DNA of 32,000 nt from an uncultured Chloroflexia bacterium (lineage in GTDB: Bacteria > Chloroflexota > Ktedonobacteria > Ktedonobacterales > JADMIN01): positions 450,001 through 482,000 of the forward strand of contig CAVRAI010000004.1 of NCBI GenBank assembly GCA_963718915.1, written 5' to 3'. The notes below the pieces were generated by a model. The model was not told the DNA's origin, ran no database searches, and saw only the letters and a program-made list of their open reading frames with translations. Position numbers and translations under genes: made by a program. Of the stretch, positions 1 to 31,849 are shown one piece after another. Numbering within the stretch: the first letter of the stretch is position 1; every line of letters begins with the position of its first letter.

Positions 1-789
1 ACGGTACAGGTATGGGATGCGACAACAGGCGTCAAACAGAACACCTTTTTGGGTAGCCCTGGCGCGGTATTGACGGTGGCGTGGTCACGTGATGGGTCTC
101 TCATCGCAGCGGCGGGCGATGATGATTTTGTAGAGGTGTGGCAGGCAGGCAGTAATATCTTTGCCCCTTTGCTTATCTATCGTGGTCACACGAGTGCGGT
201 GAACTCGGTTGCCTGGGCGCCACACGGGGCGCGTATCGCCTCGGCAAGCAGTGACAAGATTGTGGAGGTGTGGGACGCGGTGACAGGCTCGCGCATCTGC
301 ACCTGTATCGGACACGCGAACGCGGTGAACGGCGTGGCCTGGTCGCCTGACGGAACACGCATTGCCTCGGCCAGCGCCGACAAATCGGCGCAGGTGTGGG
401 ATGCGTCAAGGGGAAGCCATGTCTATACCTATCATGGTCACACGGACTGGGTGAATGCGGTGGTCTGGTCACCGGACAGGACGCGCATTGCCTCGGCGAG
501 CAATGATAAAACCGCGCAGGTGTGGGATGCGACGACGGGAGCCAACCCCTACGTCTACCGTGGACACCTGGATTATGTGCTTTCGGTCGCCTGGTCGCCC
601 GACGGTCGGCGCATTGCCTCGGCCAGCTATGACACGACGGTGCAGGTATGGGATGCGTCTGATGGCGCCCACGTCTATACCTACAATGGACACTCAGCGC
701 CAGTGAATTACGTTGCCTGGTCGCCCGATGGGACACGCATTGCCTCGGCCAGCGCTGACAATACCGTACGGATATGGAGTCCCCAATAG
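1..789 (+). CDS. WD40-repeat beta-propeller protein, 5'-truncated by the window edge
   Basis: Frame +1 is open from base 1 (TVQVWDATTG...), so the ORF-track start at 49 is an internal TTG. There are six 42-44 aa units of the form xQVWDAxxGxxxxxYxGHxxxVNxVAWSPDGTRIASASxDxT, the GH...WD signature of WD40 blades. A closing strand VRIWSPQ precedes the stop at 787-789. Confidence 0.85.
   Translation, partial: TVQVWDATTGVKQNTFLGSPGAVLTVAWSRDGSLIAAAGDDDFVEVWQAGSNIFAPLLIYRGHTSAVNSVAWAPHGARIASASSDKIVEVWDAVTGSRICTCIGHANAVNGVAWSPDGTRIASASADKSAQVWDASRGSHVYTYHGHTDWVNAVVWSPDRTRIASASNDKTAQVWDATTGANPYVYRGHLDYVLSVAWSPDGRRIASASYDTTVQVWDASDGAHVYTYNGHSAPVNYVAWSPDGTRIASASADNTVRIWSPQ
130..789 (+). repeat. Tandem coding repeats (WD40 blades), with a 126-nt period for the units starting at 262, 388, 514 and 640
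   Basis: Unit starts (V/A-Q/E-V-W codons) fall at 130, 262, 388, 514, 640 and 766. Long shared nucleotide strings recur once per unit, for example cgcattgcctcggc(c/g)agc and caggt(g/a)tgggatgcg. Confidence 0.85.
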
Positions 790-816: not shown

Positions 817-900
817 CTACTCAAACACTTCGAGAATCCCGTAGCGGGCGTTGCGGACGGCGGGACGAATGTTAGCCGACTCGAATGACACCAATGCTGA
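817..900 (-). pseudogene. Remnant of the 3' end of an mqnC-like radical SAM gene
   Basis: The reverse-strand translation reads ...FESANIRPAVRNARYGILEVFE* with the stop at 817-819. The intact mqnC ends ...KAGFRPAVRNSRYEILQVFE* with the stop at 3187-3189. The last 18 codons match at about three quarters of nucleotides by eye. Similarity decays by about 900 and there is no upstream ORF continuity. Confidence 0.6.
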
Positions 901-901
901 T

Positions 902-1357
902 TCATTGGTACCGCTCTGAGAGCGTGAGTCCGGGCCGTTCGTCATCCCAGGCCATCGAGCTGATTTTCCAGCCGGTGGGCGTCGCGATGAACTGTATTAC
1001 GATCACGCCACGACCCTCGATCGTCGTCCCCGCACTGAGGCCATGTTTCTCATATATGCTAAAGCGGTGGGCAACGTTGCCAAATATTTCTGTGATCTCC
1101 GCCGTTTCAGATTCTCGCAAGCTTTTGAGTTCGCCCGACTCAACCATGCGTTGGCGTGGCTCGATGAACTGGCGGACGGTATAGATCTCTGGCGAGGACG
1201 AACTGTTCTTGATGATCTGTCCGCTCTCGATAAAGATGTCGTACAGATTTACGTACGGTGGAGTCTCACCGTCATCGAACGAGACGGCCCGGTAGAACGC
1301 AGCCGTCAGGGTATCTATCTCGGCCTTACTGCCTGATTCGTCGTCGTCAATTTTCAT
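902..1357 (-). CDS. NTF2-like / SnoaL-like (DUF4440-type) small protein
   Basis: I place the start at the ATG at 1355-1357 (MKIDDDESGSKAEIDTLTAAFYRAV...). The upstream part of the track ORF is Cys/Arg-rich junk. The size (151 aa) and pattern (helix IDTLTAAFYRA, then beta-rich C-terminal half ending ...VIVIQFIATPTGWKISSMAW) fit an NTF2-like cone fold. This is a family-level call only. Confidence 0.6.
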   Translation of the reverse strand: MKIDDDESGSKAEIDTLTAAFYRAVSFDDGETPPYVNLYDIFIESGQIIKNSSSSPEIYTVRQFIEPRQRMVESGELKSLRESETAEITEIFGNVAHRFSIYEKHGLSAGTTIEGRGVIVIQFIATPTGWKISSMAWDDERPGLTLSERYQ

Positions 1358-1555
1358 ATAACATCCCTTACCTGCCAGCACCAGCCTCGTCGAAGCTGTC
1401 AGTCTGTCTTGTGAAGGCCTCGCCGTTGCGCACCTAAATGCCCAAAGTCGCTCCGTTGCATCTATACAAGTAGCAGCATCTCCTATATGATTACAACACG
1501 GAACCATTGTTCGCCAGATCAAGATGCGCTATCAAGCCGCTGAGGATGTAACGCA

Positions 1556-3166
1556 ATGCTGTATAAAACTGCGTTCATGAGCCATGCACATGCTGATAAC
1601 GCCAAGTGCGATCCCTATGCGGATGTTTTGCAGAAACGTGGCATCAGCCTTTATTATGACCGCGCTAATCCACAGGTTGGCCGTGACCTCGGCATAACGC
1701 TGGAGCGTGAAATCCAGCAGGCCAACGCTTTGATCGTGATGGTGACTCCTTCAGCGCTCAAATCTTTTTGGGTAACTGAAGAAATCAGCATGTTCTTCTC
1801 ACTCATGGCACAGGATCCGTCGCGATTGCTGATCCCGGTGAAGCTGGAGCCTTGCCAATTGCCGCCCCGCCTTGCTGCCCGATGGTGGATTGATGCGACA
1901 ACTCTGCCAATGCCGCAGGTGGTGGATCAATTGGCCAAAGCGCTCGAAGTGGCAGGCCCACCGTTCGTTTCATCGCCTGCACCGTCGCCTTCTGTGCGCC
2001 CTCCGGACGTCGGTGCTACACCCGCGACGACCAGCACCCCATCGTCGGCTCCCGTTCGGCCAACGGAGCAGCCAAAGCCAGCGCCTTCATCTCCTCAGCA
2101 GACGATACCCACGCCCAGGCCACCTCTGGTATCTCAACCCGCTCCTGGCGGCAACCCTAATATGGGCATCTCCCGCCGCGCGCTCATCGTGACAGGAGCA
2201 GTCGGTGTAGCCGCAATCGGCACAGGGATCATTTGGTGGTCGCGCACTAACTATATATCAGGTGTATCCAACATTCCCAGGGCGACGTCGACGCCAGCCA
2301 CTCTCTTCACCTACCGCGGCCATACAGGAGATGTACTGTCTGTTTCGTGGTCACCAGATGGGACACGAGTTGCCTCGGCTGATGCTAATGGAACTGTACG
2401 AGTGTGGGATGCAGCGGATGGCGGCCATCCCTATGGTGTCGACGCAAGTAGTGTAACTTCCGTTGCTTGGTCGCCTAAAGGGAATCGGATCGCTTCTGCT
2501 GGTGCAACGATGCAGATATGGGATGCGGCGGATGGTGGCAACTTAGCAACCTTTCAAGGATTTGGCGGGTTTGCCGCTTGGTCGCCTAGCGGGGTACATA
2601 TTGCGTCGGGCAAGGGAGATTCTAATGGTCCGTTCATACAAGTATGGAATGCAGCCGACGGTCGCGATGTGGTTGCTTATCATGGTGACTTCGCCCGACC
2701 GACATGCTCGGCCTGGTCGCCAAGTGGTATGTTCATTGCTTCCGGTGATGGATTTTTGAGGACTGTGCAGGTGTGGAACGCAGCCAGCGGCGGGCATGCG
2801 TTTACCTACAGCGGCCACTCTGCCGCCGTGCATTATGTTGCCTGGTCGCCAAATGGGATCCGAATAGCCTCTTGTAGTGGCGACGGGACGGTGCAGGTGT
2901 GGGATGCGGTCAATGGTGACAACCCATATACACATAGCGGTCACTCAGGGCAGGTATATTGTGTCTCATGGAATCCAAACGGTACGCGAGTAGTTTCTTG
3001 TTGCGATGATGGAACTGTGCAGGTGTGGGATGCGATCGATGGCGGCCATCCCTATATCTATCGTGGCCACTCGGATATAGTGTGGTCCGTGGCGTGGTCG
3101 CCTAATGGCACGCATATCGCTTCAGCGAGTCGAGACGGCACTGTACAGATCTGGCAACCGCAATAG
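1556..3166 (+). CDS. TIR domain, Pro-rich linker, single TM (twin-arginine-like) and WD40 propeller protein
   Basis: Residues 4-125 look like TIR_2: AFMSHAHAD (betaA), ISLYYD, ALIVMVTP, SFWVTEE (W72-x3-E76) and LLIPVKL. Residues 135-200 are a P/S/T-rich linker. Residues 205-228 read ISRRALIVTGAVGVAAIGTGIIWW (nt 2174-2239). About seven WD40 blades follow, and the protein ends TVQIWQPQ* like the gene at 1-789. A GAGGA sits about 10 nt upstream of the ATG. Confidence 0.9.
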   Translation: MLYKTAFMSHAHADNAKCDPYADVLQKRGISLYYDRANPQVGRDLGITLEREIQQANALIVMVTPSALKSFWVTEEISMFFSLMAQDPSRLLIPVKLEPCQLPPRLAARWWIDATTLPMPQVVDQLAKALEVAGPPFVSSPAPSPSVRPPDVGATPATTSTPSSAPVRPTEQPKPAPSSPQQTIPTPRPPLVSQPAPGGNPNMGISRRALIVTGAVGVAAIGTGIIWWSRTNYISGVSNIPRATSTPATLFTYRGHTGDVLSVSWSPDGTRVASADANGTVRVWDAADGGHPYGVDASSVTSVAWSPKGNRIASAGATMQIWDAADGGNLATFQGFGGFAAWSPSGVHIASGKGDSNGPFIQVWNAADGRDVVAYHGDFARPTCSAWSPSGMFIASGDGFLRTVQVWNAASGGHAFTYSGHSAAVHYVAWSPNGIRIASCSGDGTVQVWDAVNGDNPYTHSGHSGQVYCVSWNPNGTRVVSCCDDGTVQVWDAIDGGHPYIYRGHSDIVWSVAWSPNGTHIASASRDGTVQIWQPQ

Positions 3167-3186
3167 ATAGCAAGAAGTTGCTGTTG

Positions 3187-4766: not shown

Positions 4767-6089
4767 CTAGGCAGGCGCGGCGACCTCTTCGAGCACGTCC
4801 ATGAACGGGCTGACCGAGAAGACGGCTTTACCTGGCCCTGCCTCACCATAGCCCGGTGGCGGCGCGAGGCGGTGGCGGCGCATGGTCTCGCGGTAGACCT
4901 CGAGCAGCCGCAGGTGATATTCCAGCGGCGCGCCCTCCGGGTTCGCATCGCCCAGTGGTGTCATCGGCTCCGGACACCACGTCGTAAACCGGGGCGTGAT
5001 GCCCTTCGACATGAAGAACTCTAGCCCCTCGGCGGTCGAACGAATCGCGTCCTCCACCTCAGTATACCCGTACGGTTGCGCCATCTCGACGCCCGCGACA
5101 AAGTTCGGGATGACGCGCGCCGGGCCGAAGACCTCGCCCGCCTCCACGATGCGCCGAATCCATTCGTCGCGGCCAATGTAGCGCGTCTTGCCGGGGCAGA
5201 TCTTCGGGAAGAGGTCAGGATCCCAGACCTCATAGTTCGGGTGATATATCTGTGCGCCCGCCTCTTTCAGCCGCCGGACATCCGCGACTGGCCACGCCTG
5301 CGTCACCACTTTGCTGATCCAGCGGCCAGGGAAGCGGCGCTCGATGGCCTCGACGTACTGGGCATAGAACTCGACCTCGTTTTTGCCCTGCAACGTGGAG
5401 GTGACGCTGCCGCCAGTGATAGTGTACGCCTGGCTCTCGCTGCCGCTAGCGTCAATCGCTTCGAGCGCGGCGATGATATCCGCCACCGACTTGACGCCAG
5501 TATAGGGCCGACCCTCCTGGATTTGCTGGCGATAATTGTTGTTGATGTCGCAGAACTGGCACTCTTCTTTCGCGCCGAAATACTGGCAGACGCGGAAGAC
5601 AGTCAGATAGAGCAGATAGCCCCACTCGATAGTGGGCGCGATCTCGGCAACGGGGCGGCTATCCGGCAGCTTCGCCCGATAGTAGGGTGGCAGGTCGTGT
5701 AGCCCAACCTCGGCCACCGGCTCGCCGTCGATATGCAGCCAGAGCGCGCCGTCATGCGGAGCGACATGGTACGGCGAGGCGGGATTCAGCCGGGTGGAGA
5801 CGATGGTGCGGCGCAGATTCCAGCGGCCACCTGTCAGCGCGATCTCTTCGGGAGCATGCCACTTCTGCGTCTCGTCAAGCTGCTTCTGGCGCACCATGTC
5901 GAACGAGAAGATGAAGTAGGACTTCGGCTGATGCTCGCGCGCCGCATGCTCGCCATCCCCGGCGGGGAGAATGAGCGCGCCTTCATCGAAGGAAATGCCC
6001 ACACGCAGCAGGTCGGCCTTCAGCACTGCCTCGCGCGGCAGCGTCTTGTGGCGGGCGAATTGCCCTTCCAGCAAATCCAGTTGTCGCAT
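4767..6089 (-). CDS. Radical-SAM-like enzyme with a non-canonical Cys cluster (C-x8-C-x2-C), function unknown
   Basis: The preferred start is the ATG at 6087-6089 (MRQLDLLEG), with GAGGA about 9 nt upstream. The track start at 6113 is a GTG. The only Cys cluster is VCQYFGAKEECQFCD. Downstream YTITGGS (GGE-like) and TIM-barrel-like periodicity are present. I recognise no named family. Confidence 0.6.
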   Translation of the reverse strand: MRQLDLLEGQFARHKTLPREAVLKADLLRVGISFDEGALILPAGDGEHAAREHQPKSYFIFSFDMVRQKQLDETQKWHAPEEIALTGGRWNLRRTIVSTRLNPASPYHVAPHDGALWLHIDGEPVAEVGLHDLPPYYRAKLPDSRPVAEIAPTIEWGYLLYLTVFRVCQYFGAKEECQFCDINNNYRQQIQEGRPYTGVKSVADIIAALEAIDASGSESQAYTITGGSVTSTLQGKNEVEFYAQYVEAIERRFPGRWISKVVTQAWPVADVRRLKEAGAQIYHPNYEVWDPDLFPKICPGKTRYIGRDEWIRRIVEAGEVFGPARVIPNFVAGVEMAQPYGYTEVEDAIRSTAEGLEFFMSKGITPRFTTWCPEPMTPLGDANPEGAPLEYHLRLLEVYRETMRRHRLAPPPGYGEAGPGKAVFSVSPFMDVLEEVAAPA

Positions 6090-6175
6090 AGTCTTGTCCT
6101 CTATTCTGAGCACTGCGCTACGGTGCGCGGGCGGTTAAAACCGCGCCTGAACTGCCTCACTGCGCTCCGCCACAA

Positions 6176-9164: not shown

Positions 9165-10301
9165 TTACTTACCGCGCCCGGGCATGCCGCGGCGGGCCAT
9201 TGCATGTACGTCACGCTCGAATCCACGCGCCACAAGCCACTCGCGCGTCATCCCGGTGACGACGACCGGGCGCTGCCGCATCTCGTCGATGGTGGCTGCT
9301 CCGGTCAGTTGCATTGCCACGCGCAACTCCGCCAGGAACTGGTTCAGGAAGGCGCGCACCGCTTCTAGCCCCTCGCTCGCCGCCTTCAGGAAGGGGAAAC
9401 CCATGCCGATGAGCGTGGCCCCGAGCGCCAACGCCCGCGCGGCATCCAGACCCGAACGTACGCCGCCGGTGGATATCACTGGCAGGCCCGGCGCGCCCAG
9501 GCGTGTCTCGACCACGGCAATAGGTGTGGCGATGCCCCAGGCGCGGAAGAGCTGGCCGATACGGGCCGTTGTGTCATCACCGCGAGACTGCGCGCGGACA
9601 CTTTCCATCGCGGCCATGCTGCTGCCTCCGGCGCCACCCACATCGATTCCCGCGACGCCCGCCGCTCGGAGCGTGTGGGCCTGCTCGTAGCTGATGCCCG
9701 CGCCCGTCTCTTTGGCGATGACAGGAACGCCAACCTCCGCCGCGATCTTGCGCAACGCTTCGAGACTGCCACGAGCTCGACGGTCGCCTTCCGGCTGCGC
9801 CGCCTCTTGCAGATAGTTGAGGTGGATGGCCAACGCGCGCGCGCCGATCATCTCGACCGCACGGCGAGCGTCTGTGACCGTGAAGGCTGGATGCCGCTTC
9901 TGCGCGATGAGCTGCGGCGCGCCGACATTGGCAATCAGAAATGCGCTGGAGGCGGCGGTACGAACGACCTCATAGGTCGCGGCGAGTTCAGGCGTGACGA
10001 GCGCCGCCCGCTGGCTGCCAACACCCATTGCCAGACCGTATTCGCCCGCGATGGTCGCCAGCCGCTCGTTGATGGTGGCGACATCGGGATGACCGCCGGT
10101 GAGCGAGGAGATGAAGATGGGGTAGCGCAGGCGGCTCCCCAGGAAATCGACCGAGGTATCAATGTCGTCCAGGTCAACCTCAGGCAGCGCTCGATGCACC
10201 AGCCGCACGTCAGCCCACGTCGCCTGCTGCGGCGCGGCGATGTCGTTTTCGAGCGCGATGGTGACATGTTCGATTTTGCGTTGCCTGACCTCGTCTGACA
10301 T
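9165..10301 (-). CDS. fni: Type 2 (FMN-dependent) isopentenyl-diphosphate delta-isomerase
   Basis: Motifs are RKIEHVTIALEN, PIFISSLTGG, GLAMGVGSQRAAL, IAKETGAGIS and ISTGGVRSGLD. The gene starts 21 nt after the FAD-subunit stop. Confidence 0.9.
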   Translation of the reverse strand: MSDEVRQRKIEHVTIALENDIAAPQQATWADVRLVHRALPEVDLDDIDTSVDFLGSRLRYPIFISSLTGGHPDVATINERLATIAGEYGLAMGVGSQRAALVTPELAATYEVVRTAASSAFLIANVGAPQLIAQKRHPAFTVTDARRAVEMIGARALAIHLNYLQEAAQPEGDRRARGSLEALRKIAAEVGVPVIAKETGAGISYEQAHTLRAAGVAGIDVGGAGGSSMAAMESVRAQSRGDDTTARIGQLFRAWGIATPIAVVETRLGAPGLPVISTGGVRSGLDAARALALGATLIGMGFPFLKAASEGLEAVRAFLNQFLAELRVAMQLTGAATIDEMRQRPVVVTGMTREWLVARGFERDVHAMARRGMPGRGK

Positions 10302-10322
10302 AGGACGCTCACTACTCCGATA

Positions 10323-11321
10323 TCATCCTTCTTCGGGCCACATGCGCGCAGCCATCAAGAGCGCCCGTCGTGCCAGTTCGCGAGCCAGTGGTACTTTGTA
10401 GCGGTTGTGCGCCAGCGGCGTCGCGCTCTGAACAGCCAGTTCCGCCGCCTGAGCGGCCAGCTCTGATGTGAGTGGCTGCCCTGCGAGCAGCGCCTCGGCT
10501 TCCGTGACCCGCCACGGGACGTTGGCGACGCTGCCCAACACCAGCCGTGTGTGGGTTACTATGCCGCCATCCAGCGTCAGTTGCGCCGCCGCGCTGACCA
10601 GCGCGAATGCCCAGGCGCGCCTATCCATCGCCTTGAGATACACTCCGTGAGCGTTTTGGGATTGCGCCGGAACGCGAATTTCGGTGAGCAATTCACCGGG
10701 GCGCAGGCGATACTCGATCCGCTCGTCAGCCGTGGGCGGCGCCAGCAGCTCAGCTACGGGAAGTGTGCGCGCGCCAGATGCGCTCTCCAGGGTGACAGTG
10801 GCGTCAAGCGCGACCAGCGCCGGAGCCAGGTCGGAGGGGTGCGCCGAGCGGCACGGCCCCTGCTCGAAGATGGCGGCGTACTTGTTCTCGCCGTTGCGCA
10901 TGTAACACGTCTCACCACCCTTGAGCCAGCAGTCGAAGGGGCCGCGAAAATACCAGCAACGGCTGCGTTGGAGTAGGTTGCCGCCCACGGTCGCCATCGC
11001 GCGGAGCTGTGGTGTGGCAGCGTCGGCTACCGCTTGCGTCAGAATTGGCAACCGCTCGGCCACGTCGGCGCTCCGCTCAAGCTCGGCAAGAGTCGTCAGC
11101 GCGCCGATGCGCAGGCTACCATCGTCCTCGAAGGCGAGATGGCGCAATGCCCGTGCGGGCTTGATGTCGATCAGCCGATCTACTGTCAGCAGGCCGTCTT
11201 TGAGCAGGGGCAGGAGGTCAGTGCCCCCAGCGATCAGGCGTGTCGTGTCGCCAGCAGACGCGGCGAGTGTGGAGATGGCGTCGTCGCTGGCTTGCACGGT
11301 GAGATGTTCGAATGGGCGCAT
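10323..11321 (-). CDS. Xanthine dehydrogenase / CoxM-family FAD-binding subunit
   Basis: RLIAGGTDLLPLLKDGL and the CO-dehydrogenase flavoprotein-like C-terminal part are present. The gene starts 3 nt after the large-subunit stop. Confidence 0.85.
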   Translation of the reverse strand: MRPFEHLTVQASDDAISTLAASAGDTTRLIAGGTDLLPLLKDGLLTVDRLIDIKPARALRHLAFEDDGSLRIGALTTLAELERSADVAERLPILTQAVADAATPQLRAMATVGGNLLQRSRCWYFRGPFDCWLKGGETCYMRNGENKYAAIFEQGPCRSAHPSDLAPALVALDATVTLESASGARTLPVAELLAPPTADERIEYRLRPGELLTEIRVPAQSQNAHGVYLKAMDRRAWAFALVSAAAQLTLDGGIVTHTRLVLGSVANVPWRVTEAEALLAGQPLTSELAAQAAELAVQSATPLAHNRYKVPLARELARRALLMAARMWPEEG

Positions 11322-11324
11322 AGA

Positions 11325-13658
11325 TTACTCGTCCTCTCCAGCTTCAGAGAGCATATCCAGCACGCGGTCAGGCGTCAGCGGCAGCCGTGTGATGGAGCGC
11401 CCCAGCGCATGGCCGACGGCGTTGGCGATGGCGCCGGGCGTTGGTATGATGGGCGGCTCGCCCGCGCCTAGCACGCCTAGCGTATTGGCGACCACGAGCG
11501 GTTCGTCGAGCAGCACGATATCGATCTCCGGGATATCGCGGATGGTTGGCGCCTTGTAGTCGCCCAGGTTTGGATTCATCACCATCCCCAGCCGCTCGTC
11601 TACGACGCGCTGCTCGGTGAGGGCGAATCCTATCCCCTGAATGATGCCGCCCTCGATCTGGCTGCTGAAGGTCAGCGGGTTGACGATGCGCCCGCAGTCA
11701 TGCGCCGCGACGATGCGCAGCACGCGCACCGCGCCCGTGCCGACATCCACCTCAACCTCGGCAAACTGCGCGCCGAAGGTTCGCACGGTCACATCTTCCG
11801 CGTTGGGGCCGCGCATGCCTTTCGCCGTAATCTCGTGGCCATCCAGTTGTTCGAGAAAGGCGCTTACGCTGCCCATCTCGCTGCCAGTCTCGCGATTGAA
11901 GACGGTCGCGTTGCGGATTTCGAGCGCGTCCGCTGGCGCCTCGGCAAGATGACCGATGATTTCCAACATCTCTTTGCGCGCCTCGGTCGCGGCCATGCGA
12001 ACGGCCGGACCAACCGAGGCCAGGGTCATACTTCCGCCACTGCCAGGGGAGAAGACGCCGTACGCCGTCTCGCCCAGTTCGACGCGCACCCGTTCGAGCG
12101 GATAGCCCAGTTCTTCGGCGGCAATCTGCGCCAGCACGGTTCGGGTGCCAGTGCCGATATCCTGAGTCCCGGTGATGATGACCGCAGTGCCATCGGGCAG
12201 GAGCTTTGCGATAGCCTGCGCTGGCGGCCCACCATCGCCACCCCAGAACTGGCTGGCCATGCCGATGCCACGGCGCAGGTGGCCACTGCGGCCAGCGGGG
12301 AAGTGTCGGTCCTCGTCGTTGCGCGTCGTCCAACCGATACGCTCCGCGCCGATGCGGTAGCATTCATGCAGCAGATTGCGCGCATAGGGACGGTCGAGCA
12401 ATTGATAGCGCGCCGCGAAGTTCTTGCGCCGCAGCTCCAGCGGATCCATGCCCAATTTTGCGGCGAGGGCATCCATCGCCACCTCCAGCCCGGCCATCCC
12501 TTCCACGACTCCCGGCGCGCGGAATGCGGCGAGCGTACCGAGATTGGTGCGGGCAGGGCGGTCGGTGGTTCGGACATTGGCGCACTGGTAGAGTTCTTTC
12601 GCGGGCAGTGTCACTGGCGAGGCCCATTCGCCGTTTGCGCCAACATTGTGTACGACATCGACGTCGAGCGCGGTCAGCGTGCCGTCCTGCTCAGCGCCGA
12701 GCCGGTAGGCCTGGATGCTGGGAGGGCGATTGCCCGCATCAAGATTCTCCTCGGTGCGGTCGAGCAGGTATTTTACCGGCAGCCCCAGTTGTCGTGAGGC
12801 ATATGCGGCCAGCAGTCCCGTCCGGTGCGCGCCAAACTTGCTGCCGAAGCCACCGCCCATGAACTGAGTAATGACCTGAACCGCGGTGAGCGGTAGCCCT
12901 AACGCTTGCGCGACCTGCTGGCGCGAGCCATAGACTGCCTGCGTGGAGAGCCAGACGGTCAGGCGCGAGCCATCCCAGGACGCGACGCCACCATGCGTCT
13001 CAAGCGAGTTATGCATTGCGGCGGGCGTTTCCAGCCGGGTCTCCACAGTGACGGCGGCCTGGGCGAGCGCGGCCTCGGCGTCGCCACGCTGGTAGACGCT
13101 GGGGAACTCGTCCGAGATGGTGTTCGACGGTCGCGCCGTGTTGACCTGGGGGGCGTCGTCGGCCAGGGCAGCTTCTGGATGGGTGACGAAGGGCAGCGGC
13201 TCATATGTCACGTCAATCGCGCGAACGGCCTCGCGCGCCTGCTCCGGCGTCTCGGCGACCACCAGCGCCACCAGATCGCCATGATAGAGCATCTCTGTGC
13301 CAAAGATAGGCTGTTTGGTGGAAGGATTGACGAACTCGCCCGCGTTACGATGCGAGAATATCGCGCGCACCCCAGGGAGCCTCTCGGCGCGTGTGGTATC
13401 CAGCCCGGTGATGCGCGCGTGCGGGTGTGGCGAGCGCAGGCCAGCCGCGGTCAGCAGGCCGGGCAGCGCAACGTCGATGCTGTATTCGGCGGCTCCCGTA
13501 ACGCGCTCGCGGGCATCTACGCGCGGCGTGGGCTTGCCGACAACCTGAAGCTGCGCCTCTGGTCCCCAGACGGGCGGCTCCTCGCCCTCCAGCACAACCC
13601 GCTTCTCTTCGACCTGTCCCTCGAATTCGAGATGCGTGGTGACAATGCGAATTGGCAT
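11325..13658 (-). CDS. Xanthine dehydrogenase / aldehyde oxidase family molybdopterin-binding large subunit
   Basis: The protein is 777 aa. Motifs are GKPTPRVDARERVTG, FMGGGFGSKF and LAAFRAPGVVEG. The substrate is not assignable from sequence. Confidence 0.9.
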   Translation of the reverse strand: MPIRIVTTHLEFEGQVEEKRVVLEGEEPPVWGPEAQLQVVGKPTPRVDARERVTGAAEYSIDVALPGLLTAAGLRSPHPHARITGLDTTRAERLPGVRAIFSHRNAGEFVNPSTKQPIFGTEMLYHGDLVALVVAETPEQAREAVRAIDVTYEPLPFVTHPEAALADDAPQVNTARPSNTISDEFPSVYQRGDAEAALAQAAVTVETRLETPAAMHNSLETHGGVASWDGSRLTVWLSTQAVYGSRQQVAQALGLPLTAVQVITQFMGGGFGSKFGAHRTGLLAAYASRQLGLPVKYLLDRTEENLDAGNRPPSIQAYRLGAEQDGTLTALDVDVVHNVGANGEWASPVTLPAKELYQCANVRTTDRPARTNLGTLAAFRAPGVVEGMAGLEVAMDALAAKLGMDPLELRRKNFAARYQLLDRPYARNLLHECYRIGAERIGWTTRNDEDRHFPAGRSGHLRRGIGMASQFWGGDGGPPAQAIAKLLPDGTAVIITGTQDIGTGTRTVLAQIAAEELGYPLERVRVELGETAYGVFSPGSGGSMTLASVGPAVRMAATEARKEMLEIIGHLAEAPADALEIRNATVFNRETGSEMGSVSAFLEQLDGHEITAKGMRGPNAEDVTVRTFGAQFAEVEVDVGTGAVRVLRIVAAHDCGRIVNPLTFSSQIEGGIIQGIGFALTEQRVVDERLGMVMNPNLGDYKAPTIRDIPEIDIVLLDEPLVVANTLGVLGAGEPPIIPTPGAIANAVGHALGRSITRLPLTPDRVLDMLSEAGEDE

Positions 13659-30337: not shown

Positions 30338-31639
30338 CTACCCTGTCCACCCCAACTCCCTAGCGCGTTTCTCCGCTGCATCAGCCTCGGCGATCCGCCC
30401 CAGCATGCGCAACGTGATGCTCATGTTGCTCCAAGCAGTGATATTGTTCGGGTCGAGAGCCAGTGCCCGGCTGTAGGCGGTCAACTCCTCCTCATAGTTC
30501 CCCAGCGCGAACAGACCGACTGCTTTACCATTCCAGGCATTAGCATCATAGGGGGTCAGGGCTAGCACTCGTTCGTATGCATTCATTGCCTCTTGATAGC
30601 GCCCTATGTTATTGAGTAAGAATCCCTTATTACTCCATGTGAGGGCATCGTTCGGATCCAAGTCAAGCGCCTGGTCAAAAGCGGCCAAGGCCTCCTCAAG
30701 GCGTCCCAAGTTGCCGAGCGCTGCACCTTTGCCGATCCAGGCGGCGCGAAAATTTGGATTAAGTTCCAAGGCACGGTTGCATGCAGCCAGCGCCTCCTCA
30801 GGGCGTCCAAGACGACCGAGTGCATTGCCCATGTTGCTCCAAGCGGCAGCGAAGTCAGGGGCGAGAGCCACCGTCCTGTCGTAAGCAGCTAACGCTTCCT
30901 CACGGAGTCCCAGAGCACTGAGCGCTTTGGCTTTGTTGTTCCAGACCCATGCCTGCTTATCGTCAAGGGCGAGGGCTTGGTCGTACGCTTGGAGGTCGTC
31001 TCCGTGCCGCCCCGTTTCATTGCGTGCAAGTCCAAGATTGGCCCAGGCGTCGGACGAGCCAGGAGCGAGTTGGGTGGCGCGCTCGAAGAGAGGCAGCGCC
31101 TCGGCGTATTGCTTCTGCGCAATCAGCGCCTTGCCGCGAGTCAGCAAGTCATCTGCGTCCTCACTGGGCTGCGGGGCGACGGGAGTGGGGGCCGCACCAA
31201 CCGGGGTCAGGCCGAGGGCGCGCAGCAGGCGGTTGGCCGCCTCCATCACGGCGTAGGGCGTGAAGCCGGGAGCCTCGATACGCTTGTAGTTGTAGTATGC
31301 AAGCCAGCCGTTATCTGCCCCAAAGTCATTGCGCTCGATCCGTTCTGCCGTCACCGGTAGGAAGACCCGCGAGGGATCGCGGTCGCCTAACTCCTCCGCC
31401 CAGTCCGCCTCGCGCTTCACCCATTTTGAGCTAATGGCGTGTTTCGAGAGGATTAGCACAAAGATCGGTCGGCTGCCCAGCTCGCGCAGGATCACATCCT
31501 GCAATCGGCCATTGCCCATGTTGTGCTCGTCATACCAGACGTCCGCGCCCGCATCGCGCAACGCCGTTACGACGGCATGACAGAAGGCATTGTCCTCGGT
31601 GGCATGGCTGACAAATACCCGCAGTTGCTGCGCTGCCAT
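30338..31639 (-). CDS. TIR domain + 8x TPR repeat protein
   Basis: I place the start at the ATG at 31637-31639 (MAAQQLRVFVSHATEDNAFC...), with AAGGAGGG about 7 nt upstream. The TIR_2-like features are VFVSHATED, ADVWYD, IFVLILS, SSKWVKRE (W73-x3-E77) and VFLPV. Eight regular 34-aa TPRs follow (W.N.G.AL..LGR.EEALAA.D.AL.L.P....A). Confidence 0.9.
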   Translation of the reverse strand: MAAQQLRVFVSHATEDNAFCHAVVTALRDAGADVWYDEHNMGNGRLQDVILRELGSRPIFVLILSKHAISSKWVKREADWAEELGDRDPSRVFLPVTAERIERNDFGADNGWLAYYNYKRIEAPGFTPYAVMEAANRLLRALGLTPVGAAPTPVAPQPSEDADDLLTRGKALIAQKQYAEALPLFERATQLAPGSSDAWANLGLARNETGRHGDDLQAYDQALALDDKQAWVWNNKAKALSALGLREEALAAYDRTVALAPDFAAAWSNMGNALGRLGRPEEALAACNRALELNPNFRAAWIGKGAALGNLGRLEEALAAFDQALDLDPNDALTWSNKGFLLNNIGRYQEAMNAYERVLALTPYDANAWNGKAVGLFALGNYEEELTAYSRALALDPNNITAWSNMSITLRMLGRIAEADAAEKRARELGWTG

Positions 31640-31849
31640 GAGTGGTCCCTCCTTTGCGCGCATGCTGGCTTACCGACGATACCGTTTGCTCCCTCATTCT
31701 AGCACGTCTGGCATCTGTGACTGGCTGGTCTTTCACGTGGCATCGCAAAACGGTGCAGTCAGTACACCGGTCGGCGGTAGATGTCTGAGGGACGCTTGCC
31801 GGAGCAAAAATGCCCCGGCGAATATCCCCGCTCTATCCTACAGTCATTC

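Follow-up and report, generated by a model that had tools for sequence, protein, structure and literature searches.

The TIR-WD40 gene and its domain layout

Positions 450,001 to 482,000 of contig CAVRAI010000004.1, from a soil Ktedonobacterales bacterium, were analysed as one stretch of 32,000 nucleotides (hereafter the window). A single gene on the forward strand, at 1556..3166, encodes a TIR domain, a linker, a Ser-Arg-Arg (SRR) anchor and a seven-bladed WD40 propeller in one chain. The open reading frame (ORF) is intact, with 536 codons plus stop, and matches the Pfam TIR_2 and WD40 families. The ATG at 1556 coincides with the start of the closest relative and orthologue, MPYKSAFMSHAHAD, and an identical protein (P0015) is present on a Logan contig. 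An artefactual fusion of two genes was ruled out, since the in-frame fusion recurs in a syntenic Ktedonobacterales genome (L005) and in the proteins P0042 and P0104.

The full-length AlphaFold2 (AF2) model has a predicted local distance difference test score (pLDDT) of 82. Its confident parts are residues 1–131 and 247–536, and residues 134–242 fall below 50. According to Pfam, composition and the AF2 model, residues 132–246 consist of a low-complexity linker plus the anchor and nothing else. No nucleoside triphosphatase (NTPase) family was found between the TIR domain and the propeller, the 25 best of 51 Pfam matches all being to TIR or propeller families. The architecture and coordinates given in the first-pass annotation, a model's reading of the DNA letters, therefore stand; the stretch 2174–2239, which it had singled out, corresponds to R207–W228. 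Its statement that the protein has neither an NTPase module nor a known partner agrees with Pfam and with PADLOC and Pfam scans of the window ORFs. We regard the gene as real, and it probably encodes a functional single-chain receptor resembling a Toll-like receptor (TLR).

The TIR head

The TIR domain covers residues 4–131 (1565..1948, forward strand), as delimited by profile score, structural model, Foldseek and invariant columns. Pfam TIR_2 (PF13676) matched residues 7–116 with E=6.4e-18 and 65.9 bits, against a cut-off of 28. Residues 1–135 were modelled by AF2 with a pLDDT of 92.9, and the top 50 matches of this model in the Protein Data Bank (PDB) were all TIR domains in Foldseek, which identifies a flavodoxin-like TIR fold. 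The best of them was the AbTir filament with the nicotinamide adenine dinucleotide (NAD) analogue 3AD (7uxu_A; TM-scores 0.82/0.83, root-mean-square deviation 2.7 Å). In a phmmer search of PDB sequences, the N-terminal 134 amino acids aligned to 7uxr, AbTir, PdTIR and the plant L6/L7 TIRs. A TIR_2 layout had been proposed from the letters alone, and both the profile score and the AbTir-like fold bear it out.

The same proposal placed E76 (codon 1781..1783, forward strand) at the position of the catalytic glutamate, within W72-x3-E76. In the HMMER sequence alignment W72 falls on the conserved tryptophan and E76 on the glutamate of AbTir 'WTNYE' and PdTIR 'WPQKE', which we take to be the catalytic residue of NAD-cleaving TIRs (E208 in AbTir). 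W72, E76 and 15 or more further positions are invariant in the TIR subfamily described below, E76 in 17 members, and the subfamily alignments contain between 17 and 43 invariant columns. Both alignment and invariance thus agree with the assignment of E76. The TIR head is on these grounds a candidate NADase, and may take part in defence.

Linker and predicted twin-arginine anchor

The linker spans residues 132–203 (1949..2164, forward strand). It is 72 amino acids long, close to the 65 or so estimated earlier, is predicted to be cytoplasmic and has a pLDDT below 50. Residues 131–203 include 22 Pro, 10 Ser and 7 Thr in 73 positions (53%), in keeping with the Pro/Ser/Thr-rich character first ascribed to it. 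The linker is followed by the twin-arginine motif S206-R207-R208 (2171..2179, forward strand), recognised by the TIGR01409 profile and by conservation in relatives. Next comes a Gly/Ala-rich hydrophobic segment, A209–W228 (2180..2239, forward strand), which is the predicted signal anchor and is followed by S-R. The protein has a single Kyte-Doolittle peak, of 1.98 at residues 209–227, with GISRR just before it, and 21 residues here are uncharged.

When isolated, the segment scored 18.4 bits with TIGR01409 (TAT_signal_seq), above the cut-off of 16.7. With PF10399, the uncleaved signal anchor of Rieske proteins for twin-arginine translocation (Tat), it reached 19.6 bits (E=6e-4), below the cut-off of 24. 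No PF10518 match was listed for the window segment, and relatives gave 13–17 bits with this profile, below its cut-off of 22.7. The position-independent Hessa sum of the segment is +0.86 kcal/mol, a marginal value, and the family median is +1.3. The anchors of three TIR paralogues that lack the arginine pair (P0001, P0003 and P0009) are strongly hydrophobic, with sums of -1.8 to -3.8. A basic residue stands just past the window segment (W-W-S-R).

In actinobacterial Rieske and Sco3746-type proteins, low hydrophobicity of an internal transmembrane segment together with a basic residue after it hands the segment from Sec to Tat; a Ktedonobacter protein is among the predicted Sec-Tat substrates, and the third transmembrane segment (TMD3) of Rieske is an experimental exception to the N-terminal location of Tat signals (PMC5449189). 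FecR is another such exception: its N-terminal domain is cytoplasmic, and the internal anchor after it, with R79-R80, is inserted by Tat (PMC12036975). The anchor of the window protein, judged by profile, hydrophobicity and flanking charge, looks like an internal signal anchor of this Tat-like kind, and its insertion may well depend on Tat.

The propeller and its receptor kinase relatives

The propeller occupies residues 247–536 (2294..3163, forward strand) and was identified by Pfam (WD40, E=2.9e-55), AF2 and Foldseek. Thus both of the families for which a profile search had been proposed, TIR_2 and WD40, were found. The AF2 model has 28 strands, mostly with pLDDT above 90, and these make up seven blades, the approximate number first read from the letters. 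The best PDB matches in Foldseek were seven-bladed and included 7big and, from the Thermomonospora kinase PkwA, the WD40 domain 5yzv, both with TMt 0.93.

A search with the whole protein retrieved about 100 Ser/Thr kinase-WD40 proteins of Ktedonobacteria, aligned over the linker, the anchor and the propeller. They share 40–53% identity over 53–86% of the query, together with the motif ISRRxVVxGLxG. About 90 of these kinases (among P0016–P0134) carry the same [IVL]SRR and Gly/Ala-rich anchor before the WD40 domain; in them the anchor lies 330–410 residues from the N-terminus. Arginine pairs stand directly before the hydrophobic segment in 94 of the 120 best matches, and the apparent exceptions with a homologous module all keep the pair (SRRK, for example). 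The family logo reads [RK]-[GR]-[IVL]-S-R-R-x-[VLI]-[LVI]-x-G-L-A-G-...-G-G-G, and serine precedes the pair in 85 of the 94 relatives. Lysine occupies neither arginine position in about 93 relatives, whereas over the five preceding positions it makes up 35 of 138 Lys plus Arg (25%). The arginine pair is thus under a specific constraint that would not follow from the positive-inside rule alone. It looks as though the family as a whole uses an internal Tat signal anchor, something of which no description was found in the literature searched. As far as sequence comparison can tell, the window protein is a member of this SRR-anchor-WD40 receptor family in which the kinase head has been swapped for a TIR domain.

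The kinase relatives also bear on topology. A kinase domain must face ATP and is therefore cytoplasmic, so that the cassette would lie with its N-terminus inside and its C-terminus outside. By homology to this cassette, the TIR domain, which needs NAD+, would be cytoplasmic and the propeller extracytoplasmic. Charge asymmetry lends independent support, the family mean of Lys plus Arg being 3.7 over the 12 residues that precede the anchor and 1.1 past it. A TIR-inside, propeller-outside topology is accordingly what both lines of evidence suggest.

The TIR subfamily and its fusions

Searches with the TIR domain plus linker and with a TIR alignment yielded about 25 subfamily proteins, and those with a source name come from Ktedonobacterales. 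Genome and metagenome scans gave 12 loci, and 10 of 10 genome loci are in Ktedonobacterales or Chloroflexia metagenome-assembled genomes (MAGs); two extra loci from the metagenome scan with the TIR alignment were both TIR-beta-helix fusions. There are several paralogues per genome. The tails attached to the TIR domain comprise the SRR-anchor-WD40 cassette, a transmembrane (TM) segment with FKBP, a TM segment only, an FGE-sulfatase/C-lectin-like domain without TM, and a right-handed beta-helix without TM. The TIR head belongs, by the proteins retrieved, to a small and promiscuous subfamily that appears to be Ktedonobacterales-only. The general design of the lineage is a TIR head fused straight to a binding domain without an NTPase, of which the membrane form is one variant. 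The subfamily genes in three MFD00031 MAGs (L012, L013 and L014) are frameshifted, and are either pseudogenes or the result of assembly or sequencing errors.

Recurrence of the complete layout had been posed as a question by the first-pass annotation. It does recur: the TIR-SRR-anchor-WD40 arrangement is present in L005/P0022, in P0042, in L013 and in P0104. The whole-protein search gave three such proteins besides the window's own, P0022 (51% identity), P0042 (44%) and P0104 (35%). In P0104 the same anchor-WD40 cassette is joined to a TIR domain of a different subfamily, which implies that the architecture arose at least twice. A full-length search against 1.84 billion representatives gave 336,686 matches, dominated by long multi-propeller WD40 proteins, and P0022 was the sole protein whose best stretch was the TIR domain. 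The contigs with P0015, P0022, P0042 and P0104 span 1.9–3.4 kb and are too short for neighbours.

Divergence from the syntenic orthologue

The window shares synteny with L005, the Ktedonobacterales MAG SMAG_U3883, which carries the orthologue at 10001–11536. The two downstream radical-SAM proteins are 97% identical in amino acid sequence to their L005 counterparts, with a synonymous divergence (dS) of 0.36–0.42. Within the TIR-WD40 gene the values are very different. The TIR domain is 80% identical (dS 1.4), the anchor 68% (dS 1.6), the propeller 51% (dS 2.8) and the linker 35% (dS 1.9). The protein of about 150 amino acids encoded just upstream (L005 9361–9843, reverse strand) is 66% identical, with a dS of 1.17. 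Ratios of nonsynonymous to synonymous divergence (dN/dS) are 0.08 for the TIR domain and 0.14 for the propeller; the TIR-WD40 coding sequence is under purifying selection. With a dS of 1.4–2.8, 3–7 times that of the flanks, ordinary orthologous divergence was ruled out, and the gene is either far older than its flanks or was replaced independently of them. The hyper-divergent islet extends over about 900–3170 of the window and 9360–11540 of L005, and lies inside conserved flanks, with futalosine-pathway genes adjacent to it.

Propeller columns were divided into scaffold, intermediate and variable classes, in which the orthologue is 66/25/18% identical to the window propeller and the average kinase paralogue 69/23/15%. 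The orthologue's propeller is thus no closer than those of the paralogues, which points to complete renewal of the binding surface. Such renewal is possible by divergence, by paralogue exchange or allele replacement, or through an old polymorphism. By these comparisons the propeller, the putative sensor, turns over very fast. Fast sensor turnover suggests a role in conflict or recognition, whereas the kinase paralogy and the housekeeping context speak for ordinary signalling.

A model for the receptor and the alternatives to it

From the architecture and its evolutionary setting, which are solid, we infer the following model. The protein would be a type II single-pass receptor whose TIR domain and flexible 72-residue linker stay in the cytoplasm. 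ISRR and the weakly hydrophobic Gly/Ala-rich segment would form an uncleaved, internal twin-arginine signal anchor, and the propeller would fold in the cytoplasm before passing the Tat translocase to the cell-envelope side. There it would act as a variable, ligand-binding sensor. Ligand would cluster the propellers outside and so bring the TIR domains together inside, where they would form a composite active site and cleave NAD+, leading to NAD+ depletion or to a nucleotide signal. Activation by proximity is favoured for two reasons: a long disordered tether cannot transmit a conformational change, and enzymatic TIRs (AbTir, SARM1, plant TNLs) need self-association to build their active site. 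The protein would have originated from a kinase-SRR-anchor-WD40 receptor kinase by replacement of the kinase head with the lineage-specific TIR domain. Taken jointly, with the N-terminus in and the C-terminus out, an internal Tat anchor, an outside WD40 sensor, a clustering-activated TIR NADase and descent from a head-swapped kinase, this is a reading that we consider probable on balance. The biological role could be anti-phage defence, allorecognition (self/non-self discrimination between filaments) or envelope sensing. A wider form of the model, held more tentatively, is that Ktedonobacterales export pre-folded WD40 propellers across the whole family through uncleaved internal Tat anchors that come after large folded cytoplasmic heads, with dozens of receptor kinases per lineage, and that the TIR form is the TLR counterpart among them, an intracellular NADase switched on by clustering of a rapidly diversifying sensor outside, with neither NTPase nor partner.

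Several observations weigh against the model. The surroundings of the locus are housekeeping genes and not a defence island. The membrane anchor is absent from most fusions of the subfamily (FGE-sulfatase, beta-helix), so that an outside sensor is not intrinsic to this TIR head. In P0042 (L001/L002) the TIR domain is degenerate: R stands in place of W72, and about 25 residues are missing from the BB-loop region. The anchor and propeller of P0042 are intact. As for the anchor, the resemblance to a Tat motif noted at the outset is more than visual, TIGR01409 scoring the segment above its cut-off, but S-R-R-A-L-I-V has L, I and V where the consensus has F, L and K, and so neither the Phe nor the Lys. 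The TIGR01409 cut-off was reached by three of seven family segments tested. The motif lies 205 residues from the N-terminus, not at the N-terminal location expected of a Tat signal and outside the reach of standard Tat predictors. A structural model, which the first-pass annotation had proposed as a check, gave a mixed outcome, with the TIR domain and the propeller modelled confidently and the hydrophobic segment without a helix, at a pLDDT of 30–37.

The topology may be right and the TIR domain nevertheless a signalling or scaffolding head instead of a death effector, the protein being one of the organism's many envelope-sensing receptors. It would then relay developmental, cell-wall or neighbour-cell cues through TIR-TIR assembly with the genome's other TIR proteins or a diffusible NAD-derived signal, and would not act by abortive infection. 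This fits the receptor kinases as nearest relatives of the sensor half, the housekeeping locus without defence neighbours, the filamentous multicellular habit of Ktedonobacteria and the occurrence of several other TIR-X proteins per genome, among them a TIR-TPR protein in the window. The invariant glutamate at the catalytic position, with the full set of NADase-type motifs, and the NAD-cleaving TIR as best structural match count the other way, as does the lack of any receiver protein for a TIR signal among the nearby genes. We consider this alternative unlikely, though less so than those that follow. The anchor may also be an ordinary one inserted by Sec/YidC, with the arginines explained by the positive-inside rule and common descent and the propeller threaded unfolded and folded outside. 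All members are homologous, so that conservation could partly be inheritance, the motif is internal and without the Phe and Lys of the consensus, and the Tat profiles score several of the family's segments under their cut-offs. Such an anchor would leave unexplained that lysine is never found at the arginine pair and accounts for a quarter of the neighbouring basic residues, and that serine so regularly precedes the pair. Gly and Ala abound in the hydrophobic region and its insertion free energy is positive, in contrast to the strongly hydrophobic anchors of the TIR paralogues without the pair, and the window protein itself scores above the TIGR01409 cut-off. Insertion by Sec/YidC is therefore judged rather improbable.

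Two further possibilities call the membrane protein itself into question. If the hydrophobic stretch did not span the membrane, the whole protein would be cytoplasmic, as many soluble TIR-repeat and STAND-WD40 proteins are, and its propeller would bind an intracellular ligand. The absent helix and the marginal Hessa sum would agree with this, and most bacterial WD40 proteins, like most fusions of the TIR subfamily, are soluble. It is made very improbable by the Kyte-Doolittle peak with its uncharged residues, by the better conservation of the segment than of the surrounding linker (68% and 35% identity), by the Tat-signal profile match and by the family-wide charge asymmetry. Alternatively, a second start at M203 (ATG at 2162–2164) could give a separately exported WD40 protein of 334 amino acids, the TIR fusion being incidental. 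This ATG stands two codons before ISRR, and MGISRRALIV... would make a textbook N-terminal Tat signal. Neither the orthologue nor the family logo has this methionine, however, the sequence upstream of the ATG offers only a weak purine stretch, and at least four independent sequences carry the in-frame fusion, all of which makes a second product the least credible of the explanations considered.

Comparison with known systems

The receptor kinases of Ktedonobacteria have the same homologous cassette of linker, SRR anchor and seven-bladed propeller. They differ in the head, a kinase of about 270 amino acids where the window protein has a TIR domain of 130, and in the output, which would be phosphorylation and not NAD+ chemistry. 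PknD of Mycobacterium tuberculosis is likewise a kinase-TM-beta-propeller protein with an extracytoplasmic sensor; its propeller is NHL and not WD40, and no twin-arginine anchor is reported for it. Kinase-TM-WD40 proteins of Planctomycetota have predicted periplasmic WD40 arrays, and these WD40/TPR kinases again combine a cytoplasmic catalytic head, a single TM segment and a predicted extracytoplasmic propeller sensor (PMC11032199). They belong to another phylum, their head is a kinase, and a twin-arginine anchor is not reported for them.

FecR (PMC12036975) and the Rieske/Sco3746 proteins (PMC5449189) resemble the window protein as modelled here in having a cytoplasmic part, then an internal and uncleaved twin-arginine anchor, and an exported, folded C-terminal domain; in both, as here, a TM segment of low hydrophobicity is followed by positive charge. 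In FecR the cytoplasmic part is an anti-sigma domain of about 80 amino acids, and the protein carries no TIR or WD40 domain. In Rieske proteins Sec-inserted TM segments precede the anchor, and there is again no TIR or WD40 domain. Tat dependence is experimental for FecR and Rieske, whereas for the window protein it is predicted. Internal Tat anchors and kinase-TM-WD40 receptors are thus already described. No description of a TIR-TM-propeller protein was found in the literature searched.

Toll-like receptors also have a repeat-built sensor outside, one TM segment and a cytoplasmic TIR domain, and the bringing together of TIR domains is a likely shared logic. They are type I proteins with a leucine-rich repeat sensor, whereas the window protein would be type II, with a WD40 sensor and a TIR_2 domain of the enzymatic type bearing a glutamate at the catalytic position. 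The earlier suggestion of TLR logic in inverted N-to-C order is apt as a description of the layout, with an N-terminal TIR domain and a WD40 sensor, features that set the protein outside the TLR family proper. It is an analogue and not a member, assembled independently (convergently).

Bacterial TIR immune proteins are, to our knowledge, soluble or coupled to intracellular sensors (STAND NTPases, SAVED, Argonaute, ThsA). STAND/NLR-like TIR-NTPase-WD40 proteins likewise combine TIR and WD40 domains; the window protein is without a P-loop NTPase (NACHT/NB-ARC) and is predicted to be membrane-anchored. To Thoeris there are weak matches of the ThsB model only (E about 5e-7, 27 bits), and no ThsA, SIR2 or SLOG gene was found among the ORFs scanned in the 32-kb window. 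Membership of Thoeris, CBASS/SAVED, SPARTA and STAND systems was ruled out, as their defining partners are absent from the window or the protein. The window protein is itself one of the single-chain bacterial TIR proteins. Like it, the single-protein TIR defence systems with TM, TPR or AAA additions (PMC11350192) and the NADase TIRs of the AbTir and SpbK type have a stand-alone TIR_2 domain with an accessory domain and no separate sensor gene. Function requires the catalytic glutamate in those systems, and in none is a TM segment paired with a repeat sensor outside the cytoplasm. The bacterial TIR systems covered by the E. coli survey of 2024 seem to lack the TM segment and repeat ectodomain that mark TLRs (PMC11350192).

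If the model is correct, signalling from a surface receptor to a TIR domain arose independently in bacteria, and the protein would be a minimal one-protein system for proximity activation of TIR domains across a membrane. Internal twin-arginine anchors would be a common biogenesis route, used by about 90 kinases and reaching beyond FecR and a few Sec-Tat proteins, and this would explain how a WD40 propeller reaches the exterior of a bacterial cell.

Neighbouring genes

The window, L005 and L013 all have, beside the TIR-WD40 gene, a divergently transcribed gene for a protein of about 150 amino acids (902..1381 of the window, reverse strand). The protein gave no significant match in Pfam, PDB or PADLOC. 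By eye it resembled the NTF2/SnoaL-like proteins, an assignment that was dropped when no profile or structure matched, and it is left as uncharacterised. It keeps this place in each of the three syntenic genomes and shares the excess divergence of the TIR-WD40 gene from L005; it may be a functional partner, though an association is not established.

A second WD40 propeller gene, with at least 6.5 blades, occupies window positions 1–789 on the forward strand and runs off the left edge, its frame being open from base 1. L013 is syntenic but lacks the TIR-WD40 gene at the position that it has in the window; a TIR-ISRR-WD40 gene, frameshifted in this long-read MAG, is on the other side of the 150-residue gene, in the place taken in the window by the left-edge WD40 gene. 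The window thus probably has two tandem paralogues flanking that gene. The arrangement in L013 and the WD40 gene at the left edge indicate that the TIR-WD40 gene is accessory and that its copy and position vary.

Elsewhere the window is housekeeping in character, with menaquinone genes of the futalosine pathway, xanthine-dehydrogenase-type subunits, ABC exporters, aroK-aroB, efp and xseA. In PADLOC the TIR-WD40 protein gave generic TIR matches only, and, the TIR-TPR gene apart, neither the 150-residue neighbour nor any of seven further ORFs scanned in the window had a match. SIR2, SLOG and Macro domains were not found in the window ORFs scanned. The TIR-TPR gene, at 30338–31663 on the reverse strand, encodes a second NTPase-less TIR fusion, of 441 amino acids, with TIR_2 at residues 16–113, TPR repeats and no hydrophobic segment; its PADLOC matches are to generic TIR and TPR models only. 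A protein of 448 amino acids encoded at 4767–6113 on the reverse strand has no Pfam match at E<=1e-5. It lies in the futalosine cluster, between a PNPOx-like gene and MqnA, and is 97% identical in L005.

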